A DNA stretch of 64,000 nucleotides from Bacillota bacterium (GTDB taxonomy: Bacteria; Bacillota; Dehalobacteriia; UBA4068): positions 15,277 to 79,276 of the forward strand of contig JAILCQ010000010.1 in NCBI GenBank assembly GCA_024679955.1, written 5' to 3'. The notes below the pieces were generated by a model. That model worked only from the letters and a program-made list of their open reading frames with translations, did no database searches and was not told where the DNA came from. Positions 775 through 50,753 of this stretch are shown one piece after another. The position numbers and the translations under genes were made by a program. Position 1 is the first letter of the stretch, and every line of letters begins with the position of its first letter.

Positions 775-803
775 TGGACAAAGCATCGTTTTTACGGTAT
801 AAT
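775..803 (+). promoter_or_regulatory. sigma-A-type promoter (TGGACA-17-TATAAT) driving the cobalamin riboswitch leader
   Basis: TGGACA at 775-780, 17-nt spacer, TATAAT at 798-803. Confidence 0.55.
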
Positions 804-904
804 ACTTTCATCTGCCGGCGACTGTTTCGGCCCTCTTATGCCGCCGGCTCCATGCTCCAAACAACTGCATATCACGTTTAAGCCACATAAATTAGATATA
901 GCCT

Positions 905-1080
905 TACTGTATTTGATTTATTTAGAGGAATCGGGTGAAAGTCCCGAACGGTACCGCCGCTGTAAGCGTTTGGCGCTATGTTCGTTGGCGAAAGTCAGTC
1001 ACTGGGAAACTGGGAAGGCAGAACATAGGGCGCAGGCGAAGCCTGAAAACGCAAGTCAGAATACCAGCTTAAATGGTTTC
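905..1080 (+). promoter_or_regulatory. Cobalamin (AdoCbl) riboswitch
   Basis: Contains AGGAATCGGGTGAAAGTCCCGAACGGTACCGCCGCTGTAAGCG, matching the GGGAA / GGUGnAAnUCC / GCCGCUGUAAG core. B12-box-like GTCACTGGGAAACTGGGAAGGC, then AAGTCAGAATACCAGC resembling AGUCAGGAGACCUGCC. Matches the E. coli btuB leader pattern. Confidence 0.85.
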
Positions 1081-1136
1081 CGTCTGTAGAACGACGCATT
1101 GTCGGTACGGATACGCCGATGGGATTTATGCACAGA

Positions 1137-1174
1137 AATAAGGCTGTGGCGCTTGCCACAGCCTTTATTTTTTG
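1137..1174 (+). terminator. Intrinsic terminator / riboswitch expression platform
   Basis: AAGGCTGTGGC-GCTT-GCCACAGCCTT hairpin followed by TATTTTTTG. Confidence 0.75.
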
Positions 1175-1315
1175 CGAAAGCTCCCCTTGTCCCGGCGCTT
1201 GCCGGGAAGCTTTCGCCGCTTTGCCGCCGGCTGCCGGCGGAAACAGGACTTTCCCCTTGGCGAATGATCCCGCCCGGGACTGGGCGCATGATTCTGGAAA
1301 AAGGAAGGACATAGC

Positions 1316-1600
1316 ATGAAGTATAGCTTTACCGATGAGGAATTCAGCAAACAGGAAGCGGATTTCGCCAGAGAGCATCGGGAGGACAGCGACGAACAAT
1401 TGCTGCAGTACGTGCGGCAACGGGCGGAAGAATTGGGAAGGAACCCCAAAAAACATGAAGTAGTGGGTTTCGTATATATCAAAAACCGCATCGGCCCCTG
1501 GCCGGTGGTATTGGAACAAGCCGGTTTGAAAAGCGTCAGCCGCAAAAGACAGGCCAGGGCGGCAATGAAAGAAAAAATCAAAAACGCCGCCAATTCATAA
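1316..1600 (+). CDS. Hypothetical 94-aa protein downstream of cobalamin riboswitch
   Basis: RBS AAGGAAGG 8 nt before ATG 1316. No recognisable family. Only plus-strand gene available to the riboswitch. Confidence 0.6.
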   Translation: MKYSFTDEEFSKQEADFAREHREDSDEQLLQYVRQRAEELGRNPKKHEVVGFVYIKNRIGPWPVVLEQAGLKSVSRKRQARAAMKEKIKNAANS

Positions 1601-1659
1601 GCGACGTTTTTATCGGTAGGCGGCGCGGCTTCGACCCTTTCCGGGGCGGCCCGATCCGC

Positions 1660-2283
1660 CTAGCGGATAAAGTTGGTAAAAATGGGCGTTTCCTGCTGCG
1701 GCAGGGGCACGCCGGCTTTGGCTCCCGCCTCTTTGCAGCGCAGGAACCAGGCCATATTCCTGGCCAATATCCGCATGGTCTGCAGGCCTTCCAGGTCTTT
1801 TCCCACCTGCTCTTTGTTGGAGCCGTGTACCATGTTCCAATAGCGGGAAGAGATCACCGGCATCTGGTTGATGGTAAAATACTTGTTCAATTGATCGAAA
1901 GCGGCGGTGGTTCCCGCCCTTCTGGCCGAGAGTATGCAGGCCGCCGGCTTCAGATAATAAATGCTTTTGTCAGCCGCGAAAAAGGCTCTGTCCATAAACG
2001 CGGTCAAACTGCCGCTGGCGGCGGCGTAATGCACCGGCGAGCCGAATATGAAACCGTCCGCCTCTTTGGCCAGGCGGATAAAACGGTTCACCGCGTCGTC
2101 GATGGCGCATTCCCCTTTGCCGGCGCAGCGTCCGCAAGCGATGCAGCCGGAAATGGGCTGTACGCCCAACTGAAACACTTGGGAGGCAATGCCTTCGGCC
2201 GCCAGCGTTTTATGGATCTCCATCAAGGCAGTATACGTGCAGCCTTCTTTATGCGGGCTGCCGTTTACGAGCATTACATTCAT
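1660..2283 (-). CDS. Flavodoxin-fold NAD(P)H-dependent FMN reductase / iron-sulfur flavoprotein family
   Basis: 207 aa with an N-terminal MNVMLVNGSPHKEG flavodoxin-like start and a Cys cluster CIACGRCAGKGEC. Typical of Isf / NADPH-dependent FMN reductase. Confidence 0.75.
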   Translation of the reverse strand: MNVMLVNGSPHKEGCTYTALMEIHKTLAAEGIASQVFQLGVQPISGCIACGRCAGKGECAIDDAVNRFIRLAKEADGFIFGSPVHYAAASGSLTAFMDRAFFAADKSIYYLKPAACILSARRAGTTAAFDQLNKYFTINQMPVISSRYWNMVHGSNKEQVGKDLEGLQTMRILARNMAWFLRCKEAGAKAGVPLPQQETPIFTNFIR

Positions 2284-3295: not shown

Positions 3296-4147
3296 ATGGG
3301 GCAGATTTTGCAAGGCAAGCCGGTGGCCCTGGCCTTGAGCCAACAACTGAAGGAAAGGGTGGCGGATATGCGCCGGCAGGGAAAGACCCCGCGTTTGGCC
3401 ATTGTCCGCCTGGGAGAAGCGCCGGATGATATTGCCTATGAAAAAAGCGCGATCAAATGCTGCCGGGATCACGAGGTGGACGTACAGAGCATCGTTTTGC
3501 CTGCCGGCACCGGGGAAGAACAACTGTTGGCGCATTTGCAGGCCGTCAACGACGACAAACAAACAGATGGTTGCCTGTTGCTCAAGCCGTTGCCGCCTGG
3601 CATTCGCGAAAGCAAAGCGGCGGAAGCATTAGCCCCGCAAAAAGACGTGGATGGTATCACCCCCGGTTCTTTGGCCCATTTGTGCGGCCTGGATATCGCC
3701 GGTTTCCCGCCCTGTACCGCCCAGGCCTGCCTGGAAATATTGGATCACTATCAGATAGACGCGGCCGGCAAACGGGCCGTGATCATCGGCCGCAGTCTGG
3801 TGGTAGGCAAACCTTTGGCCATGCTGCTGTTGGCCAGGAACGCCACGGTGACGGTTTGCCACAGCAAAACCAAGGACTTGCCCGCCGTCGTCCGGGAGGC
3901 GGATATCGTGGTCGCCGCCATGGGCCGGGCCCGGTTGTTGGGCGCGGAGTATTTCCGTCCGGGGCAAATCGTTTTGGATGTGGGCATCAATTTTGACGAT
4001 CAGGGCAAAATGTGCGGCGATGTGGACTTTGCCCAGGTAGAGCCGATCGTTGCCGCCATTACGCCGGTGCCGGGAGGCGTGGGCGCGGTCACCAACCGGG
4101 TGCTGCTGAAGCATGTGGTGGACGCCGCCCAGCGTGTTTTGGGTTAA
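3296..4147 (+). CDS. folD: Bifunctional methylenetetrahydrofolate dehydrogenase / methenyl-THF cyclohydrolase FolD
   Basis: 283 aa, classic FolD N-terminus (ILQGKPVA…LAIVRLGE…) and Rossmann C-domain. RBS GGGGGAG. Confidence 0.92.
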   Translation: MGQILQGKPVALALSQQLKERVADMRRQGKTPRLAIVRLGEAPDDIAYEKSAIKCCRDHEVDVQSIVLPAGTGEEQLLAHLQAVNDDKQTDGCLLLKPLPPGIRESKAAEALAPQKDVDGITPGSLAHLCGLDIAGFPPCTAQACLEILDHYQIDAAGKRAVIIGRSLVVGKPLAMLLLARNATVTVCHSKTKDLPAVVREADIVVAAMGRARLLGAEYFRPGQIVLDVGINFDDQGKMCGDVDFAQVEPIVAAITPVPGGVGAVTNRVLLKHVVDAAQRVLG

Positions 4148-4158
4148 GGAGAACGAGT

Positions 4159-4629
4159 ATGGAAGACAAACACTACAGACACGAGGGCATAGGCAATCCC
4201 AGCAGCCGCCAAACGGCGCAAGCCGCCATTATGATGGCCATCAGCGACAACCGGGATGAAGAAAAGCTTTTGAAGCAAAAATACGCCGCCGCCGGTATGC
4301 GGGTGGCCGCCATGGATTTCGGCGGCGAAGCGGTCACCGCCGTATCGAAAATCATCGAACGGGCGGTGGTTGGCGCCAAGCGGGAAGGGGTCATCAGCGA
4401 CTGTCATGCGGATGAAGGCGCCGTAGCCGGCGCCACCCATGAGATACTCAGCCAGGTGATGAGCCGTTCCATCGGCCTGAATTTCGGCGGCAAGATCGGC
4501 GTGGCCCGGCAAGGCGATCATCTTTGCGTGGCGGTATTTTTCGCCATTGGCATGCTGCATTTGGACGATGTGGCCATCGGCATTTCCCACCGGGCTTTAT
4601 CTACCGGCAGCAAGGGACATGCTCTGTAA
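4159..4629 (+). CDS. HutP-family protein (hut operon antiterminator-like), about 156 aa
   Basis: Sequence MEDKHYRHEGIGNPSSRQTAQAAIMMAI…GKIGVARQGDHLCVAVFFAIGMLHLDD resembles HutP. RBS AAGGAGAACGAGT. No hut genes nearby. Confidence 0.6.
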   Translation: MEDKHYRHEGIGNPSSRQTAQAAIMMAISDNRDEEKLLKQKYAAAGMRVAAMDFGGEAVTAVSKIIERAVVGAKREGVISDCHADEGAVAGATHEILSQVMSRSIGLNFGGKIGVARQGDHLCVAVFFAIGMLHLDDVAIGISHRALSTGSKGHAL

Positions 4630-6072: not shown

Positions 6073-8315
6073 GTGGAAATCATCGTAGACCGGCACGCCG
6101 GCTTTTGCACCGGCGTCAGGCGAGCGATCGCGTTGGCGGAAGACGCGGCACATAAATATGGTTCATGCTGCACCTGGGGTCAATTGATTCACAACCCACA
6201 GGAAATCGCCAGGCTGAAAAAAAAAACGTGCTTCCGGTTGAGAACGTTGGGGAAATCCAGTCTCCGTGTTTGGTAATACGAGCCCATGGCGCGGGTCCGG
6301 AGATTTATCATTGGGCGCAAGCGCAGGATTTGACTTTGGTAGACGCCACCTGCCCTTTTGTAAAAAAGGTGCAAAAGACGGCCGTGGAGGCGCAGAATGA
6401 CGGCCGGCAGGTTTATATCGTCGGCGACCCCCATCATCCCGAGGTCCTGGGCATTTGCCAATGGGCCGAAGGGGCCGCGGTCGTTGCGGACGTGCAGGCG
6501 GCCCGGGAAATAGAGGGCGCGCCCCGGGGTTTCGTCCTTTGCCAAACCACTCAAACGGAAGAAAACTTTTCTCTGGTGGCGGCGGTATTGACCGCCAAAT
6601 GCCACGACTGTATCATAAATCGAACGATTTGCCCCAGCACCGTTACCAAACAGCGGGCTGCGGCGGAACTGGCGAGAACCGTGGACGTGATGATTGTTAT
6701 CGGCGGAAAAAACAGTTCCAATACCCAAAAATTGGCAAAAATATGCAAAGCTGCCGGCGCGGAAACCTACTGCATCCAGCGTTGGGCGGATTTGGATATA
6801 AATAAAGTTCGAGGCGCCGGCCGGGTGGGCGTTACCGCCGGGGCTTCAACGCCAGATTGGATTATTGAGGAGGTAGTAGTACAGATGACCGAATTGGAAA
6901 AGACCCAGGATTGCGCAGTGAACGAGGAAAATTTAGAAAAGGAAATTTGCGAGCATGCGGATGCTCTTGAGCAAACGGCGGCTTCCCAGGAAGAGGCCGT
7001 GAATCAGCAGCCGGAAGCGGCTGCCGAAATAGATGCCGCGGAAAACGCGGCCGACGCCGAAGCTTCTCAGGAAGAGGAAGAAAAGAGCCTGGCCGACGCC
7101 TTTGCCGAAGAATACGGCGATATGAAAGAAATCCGCCGCGGCGCCAGAGTCAAAGGCGTGGTGGTACAGGTAAAAGACGACGAATTGCTGGTGGACATCG
7201 GCGGCAAAAGCGAAGGCGTTTTGTCGGCCTCCGAACTGAGCCCGGAAGACGCCAAGAATATCCGGGAAAGATTCCATGTAGGCGACGAGATGGACGTTTT
7301 GATCCTGCGCCGGGAAAATCAGGAAGGTTACCCCATCCTTTCCAAGAAAAGAGTGGATCAGGATATCGCCTGGGATAAATTGGCGCAAATGAAAGCGGAT
7401 AAGGAAATCGTCAGCGGCGTCGTTACCGAAGTGGTAAAAGGCGGTTTGCTGGTGGACGTGGGCCTGCGCGGTTTTGTTCCCGCTTCCCTGGTCAGCTTGG
7501 GCTATGTGGAGGATCTTTCTACCTATGTAGGCAAAGAGCTGCAAATGAAAATCATCGACTGCGATAAGCATAGCAATAAACTGGTGCTTTCCGCCAAAGC
7601 CGTGCTGCGTAAACTGTCCCAGAATATGAAAGAAAAAACCTGGGCGGAGATCGCCGAAGGGCAAACCCGTCACGGCGTGGTGCGCCGTTTGACCAATTTC
7701 GGCGCTTTTGTGGACATCGGCGGCGTAGACGGCTTGCTGCATGTTTCGGAAATGGCCTGGTACCGGGTAAATCATCCTTCGGATCTGCTGAAAGAAGGGG
7801 ATGAGATCGACGTCTATATCCTGGGCGTGGATGCGGAAAATGAAAAAATTTCTTTGGGCCTGAAACAGCTTACGCCCAATCCCTGGACCACCGCAGCGGA
7901 AAAATATCCGGAAGGCAGCGTGATCACCGCGAAAGTGATGCGCACCGCCACCTTTGGCGCCTTCCTGGAAGTGGAACCCGGTGTGGAAGGCTTGGTTCAT
8001 ATTTCTCAAATGGCCCATCATCGGGTAGAAAAAACCGAAGATGTGGTAAAACCCGGCGATATCGTGCAGGTGAAGGTTTTGTCCGTGGATCCCGAAGCCA
8101 AACGGATGAGCCTCTCCATCAAAGCCACCTTGCCGAAAGAAACCGAAGAAGCTGCGCCGGTGGAAGAAGCTGCGCCGGTGGAAGAAGCCGCCCTGGTTGA
8201 GGAAGCTGCGCCGGTAGAAGAAGCTGCCCCGGTTGAGGAAGCCGCGCCAGTAGAAGAAGCCGCCCCGGCGGAAGAAGCCGCCCCGGTAGAAGAAGCTGCG
8301 CCCGATGCCGAATAA
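6073..8315 (+). CDS. ispH: Bifunctional 4-hydroxy-3-methylbut-2-enyl diphosphate reductase / 30S ribosomal protein S1 (IspH-RpsA fusion); reading frame broken by a frameshift in an A10 tract at 6222-6231
   Basis: GTG 6073 with RBS AGGGAG. N-terminal IspH (HAGFCTGVRRAI…) runs in frame 1 to 6276. Continuation (NVLPVENVGEI…ATCPFV…) plus four S1 domains is in frame 3 from 6165. One extra A, or two fewer A's, in aaaaaaaaaa restores a single ORF. Confidence 0.85.
8143..8310 (+). repeat. 9 x 18-bp tandem repeat encoding (EEAAPV)n acidic C-terminal tail of S1
   Basis: gaagaagctgcgccggtg and close variants repeated head-to-tail nine times before the stop at 8313-8315. Confidence 0.9.
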
Positions 8316-50404: not shown

Positions 50405-50753
50405 GGGGCTGTACCGGTTTCGACGGGGGATGGATTGGCGAAATAAGCGAGCCGGGATCCCACTTGCCCGTAAAACAGTGGAAACAAATTAATTTGCCAA
50501 AACAAATTCTTCTTTAGCTGCTGCTTAAGCAGTCTAACCCTGTGACCGCCTGGCCTGTAGGGTAGTTTACAGGGTCATGCATACAGGCTGCCTCCGACGG
50601 CTTTTCCCGTCCGGCGGAGGGAGAAACAGGGAATAGCGTCGATTCAGGCCGTTGGCAGCCGGTTTCGCCGCGAATACAAAGTGCCAACTGCGCTCGGAGA
50701 AGGTTTTGTGGATCCTCTTTCGGACAGGAGTTCGACTCTCCTCAGCTCCACCA
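50405..50753 (+). ncRNA. ssrA: tmRNA (SsrA)
   Basis: 5' GGGGCTGTACCGGTTTCGACGGGG…, T-arm GGAGTTCGACTCTCC and 3' CAGCTCCACCA. Candidate tag ORF GCC AAA ACA AAT TCT TCT TTA GCT GCT GCT TAA (A-KTNSSLAAA) at 50496-50528. Confidence 0.92.

Follow-up and report, generated by a model that had tools for sequence, protein, structure and literature searches.

What does a cobalamin riboswitch regulate when the only gene that follows it on its strand encodes a protein of 94 amino acids (aa)? This question was raised by a locus near the start of a 64,000-nucleotide (nt) stretch of DNA from a member of the Bacillota (Dehalobacteriia, UBA4068; assembly GCA_024679955.1, contig JAILCQ010000010.1, positions 15,277 to 79,276), here referred to as the window. 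A first-pass annotation, made from the letters of the sequence, had described a textbook riboswitch with its own promoter and terminator hairpin in front of a single open reading frame (ORF) of no recognisable family. We analyzed the locus, the encoded protein and the corresponding loci of other species. The riboswitch itself belongs to a known family and is unremarkable; the novelty lies in the cargo, which represents an undescribed family of small proteins encoded behind B12 riboswitches in numerous Clostridia of gut and sediment, mostly in front of genes for large surface proteins of B12-binding type. As the best explanation of the whole we favour, with moderate confidence, a B12-repressed, small cytoplasmic and probably nucleic-acid-binding protein that belongs to a Gram-positive corrinoid-scavenging regulon.

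The riboswitch of the window

A cmscan search of the whole window against Rfam, the check that had been proposed for the aptamer, identified a cobalamin riboswitch (RF00174) at 877..1086 (+), which scored 54.8 bits (gathering score 31.5, E=6.9e-11). The match is full-length (model positions 1-189 of 189). The term "textbook" was generous with regard to the score, which falls into the lower half of the range of 33-114 bits found in related loci. The orthologous aptamers of L001-L003, L005 and L006 scored 53.7-53.9 bits.

Upstream of the aptamer a sigma-70-type promoter is located at 775..803 (+), consisting of the -35 hexamer TGGACA (775..780), a 17-nt spacer and the -10 hexamer TATAAT (798..803). 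The consensus scan gave 11 of 12 matches and by itself was not above chance, with two sites found and 1.5 expected. When the orthologous but diverged leaders of the window, L001 and L006 were aligned, neither hexamer varied, in contrast to the flanks, and the proposal of a dedicated promoter is supported by this conservation together with the consensus matches.

The intrinsic terminator, likewise recognized in the first-pass annotation, spans 1140..1173 (+) and starts 54 nt past the aptamer. It comprises a stem-loop (1140..1165) with 11 base pairs, seven of them G-C, which is followed by TATTTTTT with the T-run at 1166..1173. Hairpin and T-run provide the leader with the expression platform of a cobalamin riboswitch. 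The terminator was present in and dominated both the minimum free energy and the centroid folds of 1040..1330 (z=-3.6), and folded alone it reached -20.8 kcal/mol. L001 and L006 keep the terminator with wobble-compatible changes.

The single ORF behind this leader is located at 1316..1600 (+), and 229 nt separate the end of the aptamer from its ATG. A ribosome-binding site (RBS), AAGGAAGG, was read from the sequence at 1301..1308 (+), 7 nt ahead of the ATG, and equivalent purine-rich sites are present in L001 and L006.

The small PF18780 protein and its subfamily

The ORF had been regarded as an orphan. This view had to be revised, since the protein matches the Pfam family PF18780 (HNH_repeat, full name "homing endonuclease associated repeat") with 47.1 bits against a cut-off of 26 (E=3.1e-12). 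The match covers residues 25-72 and profile positions 2-54 of 54. The window protein contains this single copy and no further domain, and neither tandem repeats nor an HNH nuclease were found in it. The protein thus represents a stand-alone form derived from the PF18780 module rather than a homing endonuclease. No NCBIfam model matched the ORF. There was no match for the window protein in PHROGs either; some of its relatives fall into phrog_22655, which is of unknown function.

Comparison with the 80%-identical orthologue of L001 gave proportions of synonymous and nonsynonymous differences of pS=0.66 and pN=0.11 (10.6%), respectively, and a ratio of the corresponding substitution rates (dN/dS, omega) of 0.07. 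An AlphaFold2 model based on an alignment of 82 sequences was confident as well (mean predicted local distance difference test score, pLDDT, of 81.7) and consisted of five helices (residues 8-20, 26-40, 52-59, 62-68 and 76-93). Because of this substitution pattern and the model, the ORF is a genuine protein-coding gene under purifying selection.

An exhaustive HMMER search yielded 761 relatives at E<=0.001, many of which carry multiple repeats. Among them we distinguished a subset of single-domain proteins of 85-150 aa with 44-62% identity and the core DSDEELL.Y.R..A..LGR.PKK.EV.GF.YIK.R.GPWPRVLE.AGLK. All 82 members of this subfamily matched PF18780; in the source databases such proteins are annotated as "hypothetical" or as "homing endonuclease associated repeat-containing protein". 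They share an acidic N-terminal helix, a basic helical core with the conserved motif LGR.PKK.EV.GF.YIK.R.GPWP(R/V)VLE.AGLK and a tail rich in K and R, and no signal peptide or transmembrane segment was found in them. The window protein agrees with the subfamily in length, its single domain, GPWP[RV][VI]LE.AGLK, the acidic helix and the basic tail. The charge profile of N-terminal helix, core and tail is -6 / +4 / +6, and the tail is net positive in 80 of the 82 members (39% K+R). W62 is invariant in the family and several P, G, K and R residues are conserved. Among columns with at least 80% conservation there was no His or Cys that could serve as a ligand.

Conservation of the riboswitch in front of the small gene

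A survey with a protein pattern, restricted to one genome per species, yielded 51 loci from Clostridia and relatives (Oscillospiraceae, Christensenellaceae, Peptococcaceae, Pelotomaculum, Sedimentibacter, Anaerovoracaceae and others). As no RNA was used in the search, the survey is not circular with regard to the riboswitch. Distances were measured to the start of the conserved domain and not to the predicted start codon. RF00174 was found on the same strand within 600 nt upstream of this point in 34 of the 51 loci. One further case was L008, where the riboswitch is followed by an operon of a 52-aa ORF similar to the DUF2292 genes, a 249-aa ORF at the place of the SseB-like gene and the small gene. 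Three loci offered too little upstream DNA to judge, so that a same-strand upstream cobalamin riboswitch was present in 35 of 48 assessable species loci. According to our own arithmetic, an even spread of the 42 RF00174 hits over the 663 kb of strand-specific sequence searched would place about two of them in these upstream regions.

The close orthologues (80% and 73% identity) carried RF00174 upstream wherever the contig extends far enough, and the metagenome contigs L058/59, L061-63, L067 and L068 agreed with the pairing as well. Terminator-like hairpins were found between aptamer and small gene in 35 of 40 riboswitch-bearing loci, the window included. The first-pass annotation had asked for homologues behind B12 riboswitches; the pairing is no one-off and proved to be conserved across dozens of Clostridia species. 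In Clostridia and relatives the B12 riboswitch regulon includes the small subfamily as a conserved member.

Loci of two-repeat PF18780 proteins in Bacillus and Listeria served as controls and showed no cobalamin riboswitch. The link to the riboswitch thus belongs to the small subfamily and not to PF18780 as a whole. These two-repeat genes reside in mobile-element contexts. In the Bacillus locus L064 (2427..6346) five PF18780 genes lie in a row beside integrase and helix-turn-helix genes. In L066 (Listeria booriae) the PF18780 gene is located near a resolvase gene; TIR_2 and DUF4145 genes lie close by, as does a RatA antitoxin RNA.

The arrangement varied between the surveyed loci. Tandem RF00174 aptamers at 781..1005 and 1158..1376 (66.1 and 69.5 bits) directly precede the small gene in L038, and one riboswitch in L047 is followed by tandem paralogous small genes (3495..4001 and 4001..4330). 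L014-L017, L021, L022, L025 and L029 encode two domains fused into one protein of 181-194 aa. Cobalamin riboswitches downstream and not upstream of the small gene were present in L031 (4295..4511) and L037 (5221..5409 and 6139..6343). The riboswitch-less members in L048, L049 and L050 precede rpsO; on the opposite strand upstream of them T-box-like leaders occur (L048 3399..3648, L049 3443..3692, L050 1768..2024, -), which are sub-threshold with 66-77 bits compared to a gathering score of 93.

Partner genes and operon contexts

In 38 of 44 loci the small gene is followed on its strand by a gene whose product carries a classical signal peptide, and the two are normally co-transcribed. Pfam analysis of 39 such partners identified DUF4430 in 10, dockerin in nine, cadherin-like domains in four, SLH in three and DUF4465 in one (L014). 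Many partner ORFs end at about 1200 aa, where the sequence of the locus stops. On longer contigs the partners measured 1210 to 2605 aa and carried DUF4430 together with SLH or cadherin-like domains. Binding of B12 by DUF4465 domains has been demonstrated (PMC13398666), and DUF4430 is the C-terminal domain of transcobalamins (PMC4350170). Because signal-peptide partners with DUF4430 or DUF4465 and with wall-anchoring domains stand behind the small gene, the usual module is composed of a riboswitch, a small cytoplasmic PF18780 protein and a wall-anchored putative corrinoid binder.

The longer contigs also answered whether homologues reside next to cobalamin genes: cbiQ-cbiO-cbiM-cbiN were found to share the operon of the small gene, and CobN or BtuFCD-like genes lie in the vicinity. 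One riboswitch-led operon in L067 (2841..10225) combines cbiQ-cbiO-cbiM-cbiN, which encode cobalt transport of the energy-coupling factor type, with a small PF18780 gene, a DUF2292 gene and the gene of a 1210-aa protein with DUF4430 and SLH. Since the small gene heads or sits in operons with DUF4430, DUF4465 and cbiMNQO genes, it belongs to the B12-acquisition regulon. The earlier impression of an unusual cargo was right; the unstated implication that it is unrelated to B12 biology was wrong in view of these operons.

The operons that hold the small gene and the gene of the giant surface protein repeatedly contain a DUF2292 gene of about 50 codons and an SseB-like gene as well. These companions were located at 7886..8946 in L061, 8229..8861 in L062, 6300..6452 in L067, 4809..5815 in L068 and 2746..3752 in L008, where the assignment of the two ORFs of L008 (52 and 249 aa) and of the 52-aa gene of L068 is based on position and resemblance only. 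This recurrence suggests that DUF2292, SseB-like and small protein form a multi-component cytoplasmic set.

Secreted proteins of about 400 aa with a C-terminal dockerin were encoded in L009 (3922..5133), L018 (4322..5566) and about seven similar loci. Their N-terminal regions of about 330 aa had no Pfam match and are a candidate for a new corrinoid-binding domain on cellulosome-like scaffolds.

Lineages without a partner gene

In the window and in L001-L005 only the riboswitch and the small gene were present, without an adjacent partner. The shared gene order is DctPQM, riboswitch, small gene, convergent FMN_red, fchA and folD. The surface-protein gene that usually follows in the subfamily is missing in the window, and the position of the next gene is taken by the convergent FMN_red. 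A tblastn search with 14 partner proteins revealed no partner-like gene in the 64-kb window, and a paralogue of the small gene was not found there either. In L006, whose small protein is 73% identical, the small gene is still followed, at a distance of 50 nt, by the gene of a secreted DUF4430 protein.

Window and L001 have diverged to a dS of about 1.6 with omega still at 0.07, and promoter, aptamer, terminator and RBS are intact. As two partner-less lineages have retained the gene over this distance, it is maintained on its own. Residue 64 (1505..1507) is V in the window, P0002 and P0003 and R in 84% of the subfamily (GPWPRVLE). From the alignment, V64 may indicate that the function has shifted in the branch that lacks a partner and in the relative nearest to it.

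Leader insertion and boundaries of the locus

Between terminator and RBS the window carries a GC-rich structured insertion of about 124 nt (~1175..1298, +), which is predicted to fold into three hairpins. It is absent in L001 and L006, where the RBS follows within about 10-35 nt after the terminator. We considered a repeated or mobile element and rejected it, because no second copy of 1175..1298 was found within the 64-kb window. The insertion could supply a second layer of control or be neutral.

The upstream neighbour of the locus encodes a DctM permease of the tripartite ATP-independent periplasmic (TRAP) type. Downstream, as had been pointed out in the first-pass annotation, the next gene lies on the other strand; it encodes an FMN_red flavoprotein (1660..2283, -). 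The 3' end of the ORF is overlapped by a hairpin (1579..1612) with a 13-pair stem and a T-run, which is terminator-like on the minus strand and would serve the convergent FMN_red gene. Read on the plus strand, it shows an A-run before the stem and a T-run in the 3' arm. Judged by these features the hairpin is likely bidirectional and would probably stop plus-strand transcription as well. Read-through antisense to FMN_red is unlikely because of this overlap, and antisense regulation of the convergent gene was judged unlikely for the same reason. The 94-aa gene is the sole same-strand cargo of the locus; convergent neighbour and hairpin leave no other candidate. The only other Rfam match in the window was a transfer-messenger RNA gene at 50405..50753 (+; RF00023, 175.1 bits).

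Proposed function of the small protein

In a published reporter study an intrinsic terminator and repression of expression by corrinoids were found for 37 of 38 functional cobalamin riboswitches (PMC9600662). The terminator hairpins in 35 of the 40 loci together with this published behaviour argue for OFF-switch logic. When corrinoid is plentiful, the aptamer would fold, the terminator form and the gene be switched off, as judged from the anatomy of the leader and from the behaviour of the class. When corrinoid is scarce, transcription would read through and the small protein would be made.

An alternative pairing that would permit read-through is less clear. Folding of the nascent transcript gave a candidate antiterminator at 1115..1150 (+), which overlaps the 5' arm of the terminator: without the 3' arm, 1140..1150 paired with 1115..1127 or 1131..1135, and similar local hairpins formed in the leaders of L001 and L006. 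The full-leader fold suggested a long-range antiterminator between 882..886 at the 5' end of the aptamer and the 5' arm of the terminator; it was rejected, since neither L001 nor L006 preserves the bases needed for this pairing.

Once made, the protein would act inside the cell as a nucleic-acid-binding factor, probably as a small regulator or adaptor working in trans during B12 limitation, and it would probably neither bind B12 nor work at the surface. This reading is drawn from the basic tail, the lack of export signals, the two-domain and duplicated forms, the survival of the solo form and the nuclease relatives, and we put it forward tentatively. In other proteins the PF18780 module occurs in 3 to 22 repeats, and P0141 is a fusion with an HNH nuclease domain. 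The occurrence of the repeats in or together with HNH nucleases suggests, by association only, that PF18780 is a nucleic-acid-binding module. Giant proteins built almost entirely of PF18780-like units were also observed, namely P0004 (1313 aa), P0005 and P0008, with up to 22 matched stretches.

A more far-reaching version is conceivable and rather doubtful. According to this version, the riboswitch would feed a regulatory cascade in which the protein, made when corrinoids are scarce, binds DNA or RNA and switches on or tunes genes without a riboswitch of their own, such as those for surface capture and B12-sparing metabolism. Together with the DUF4430 and DUF4465 proteins, DUF2292 and the SseB-like protein it would then define an undescribed Gram-positive counterpart of the BtuG/H/J system, by which Bacteroides captures B12 at its surface. 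A regulator acting in trans would explain that the gene survives alone behind its riboswitch.

Several results weigh against this picture of a riboswitch-controlled nucleic-acid-binding protein. No experiment or structure ties PF18780 to DNA or RNA binding. A Foldseek search of the model against the PDB returned nothing significant (best E=3.0), the non-significant hits (E>=3) being sigma factors, LexA and TnsB. The best match in BFVD was an unnamed protein, not significant at E=0.11, and a sequence profile search of the PDB gave only spurious low-complexity matches to designed helical repeats. The LexA_DNA_bind profile matched one of the 82 members weakly (E=0.097). The overlaps of stop and start codons between small gene and partner are explained by a stoichiometric partner no less well than by a regulator. 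In addition, V64 may stand for an altered activity in the window lineage, and the pairing at 1115..1150 is a weak candidate for the antiterminator. Finally, 13 of the 48 assessable loci had no upstream riboswitch, and re-scanning of 11 riboswitch-less loci detected no sub-threshold ones at E<=0.1. The small PF18780 family is therefore not strictly bound to B12.

Alternative explanations

The main rival is a cytoplasmic accessory factor for the secreted corrinoid binders, for instance an export or folding chaperone, a targeting adaptor or an assembly partner, without any role in gene regulation. We consider it unlikely. In its favour, a signal-peptide protein comes next in most loci and the start of the partner overlaps the stop of the small gene in 13 of 44 loci (-4, -11, -17 and -26 nt), which suggests translational coupling. 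The recurrence of the small gene in operons with two other small cytoplasmic proteins, DUF2292 and SseB-like, and the lack of significant similarity to a known DNA-binding fold point the same way. Against it, the window and L001-L005 keep the gene without an adjacent partner, no DUF4430-type gene lies within the 64 kb, and yet omega is 0.07. The partners are moreover heterogeneous (DUF4430, DUF4465, dockerin-only, SLH or proline-rich) and hard to reconcile with a specific chaperone, and the domain family is otherwise found in endonucleases.

Binding of corrinoid by the small protein itself, as a cytoplasmic B12 chaperone, storage protein or sensor under scarcity, appears improbable. Known B12-binding folds include the Rossmann-like B12-binding domain and those of the transcobalamin, BtuF, BtuG, BtuH and BtuJ types, and a highly charged, all-helical domain of about 50 residues is unlike them. 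The invariant W62 and the conserved P, G, K and R residues could form a pocket, and membership in the B12 regulon with co-transcription of B12 binders and cobalt transport genes would suit a binder. The missing His or Cys ligand and the relatives, which are repeat modules of nucleases, speak against it.

It is very improbable that the window locus is a decaying remnant, in which the binder was lost and a small gene without a role of its own was left over. The DUF4430 protein retained in L006, the 124-nt insertion found only in the window and the R-to-V exchange at a conserved position would fit decay. They are outweighed by the partner-less synteny that the window shares with L001 (DctM, riboswitch, small gene, convergent FMN_red), by the dS of about 1.6 combined with an omega of 0.07 and by the intact promoter, aptamer, terminator and RBS. 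An RNA as the true output, either a terminated small RNA or an antisense to FMN_red with the ORF being incidental, is hardly credible, although B12 riboswitches control regulatory RNAs in Listeria and Enterococcus. For this reading speak the convergent orientation of the next gene and the leader itself, which upon termination would yield a structured RNA of about 360 nt. Against it, strong purifying selection acts on the ORF, dozens of species combine it with the riboswitch regardless of the downstream gene, and the terminator-like hairpin at 1579..1612 lies between it and the convergent gene.

Significance and comparison with known systems

Competition for B12 shapes gut and sediment communities, and to our knowledge the capture of corrinoids at the surface is well described only for Bacteroides. 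The loci studied here point to a module under riboswitch control that is widespread in Clostridia, among them Oscillospiraceae, Christensenellaceae, Peptococcaceae and Anaerovoracaceae, and the most constant protein of which is the small cytoplasmic PF18780 protein. With riboswitch and protein alone the window represents the minimal form of the module and offers a clean system for the role of the protein. Should the protein be a regulator, it would serve the riboswitch as an intermediary for widening the regulon; should it be an accessory factor, it would mark a new machinery for the display of B12 binders on Gram-positive walls. Under either reading PF18780 gains its first biological context, and many unannotated candidate B12-binding surface proteins are flagged.

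Our literature search, which left most subscription journals outside, found no paper that links PF18780 with B12. The sole mention of PF18780 found was a line in a table of repeat-protein models, and no functional study was encountered. Likewise, we found no paper on riboswitch-controlled DUF4430 or SLH surface proteins in Gram-positives, and nothing on DUF2292/YezD in connection with the family or the module.

Compared with the Bacillota cobalamin riboswitches that carry an intrinsic terminator (PMC9600662), the window has the same full-length, above-threshold aptamer followed by a stem-loop and U-run, and the same repression logic would be expected. It differs in its cargo, which is a small PF18780 protein instead of a transporter, a cob/cbi gene or a B12-independent isozyme, and in the additional structured spacer of 124 nt between terminator and RBS.

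The btuB-btuG-btuH-btuJ loci of Bacteroides (PMC8941943, PMC10404256, PMC13398666) resemble the related loci in that a B12 riboswitch stands over secreted or surface proteins of B12-binding type, and the DUF4465 domain (BtuJ fold) is shared with L014. In contrast, the systems described here are Gram-positive, use SLH, dockerin or cadherin-like anchoring and have no TonB-dependent transporter. Their binders are mostly of the DUF4430 type and are preceded by the small PF18780 gene, and the window itself is without a surface protein. We know of no description of a small cytoplasmic PF18780-type gene in the btu loci of Bacteroides.

With the homing-endonuclease and multi-repeat modules of PF18780 the subfamily shares the unit ...ELL..V...A.ELGR.P...E......R.G.W...L..AGL, as reflected by the 47.1-bit match. 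It differs from these repeat proteins by its lone copy in 85-150 aa, the acidic helix, GPWP(R/V)VLE.AGLK, the basic tail and the lack of a nuclease. Moreover, it is associated with the riboswitch, whereas the two-repeat relatives of Bacillus and Listeria reside in mobile elements without one.

Regulatory outputs of B12 riboswitches are known from Listeria and Enterococcus, where AspocR acts on PocR and EutX/Rli55 sequesters EutV. The proposed model would share with them a regulatory riboswitch output that extends the B12 response to other genes. AspocR and EutX/Rli55 are non-coding RNAs; the output here is a translated, conserved small protein, for which a regulatory role is proposed.

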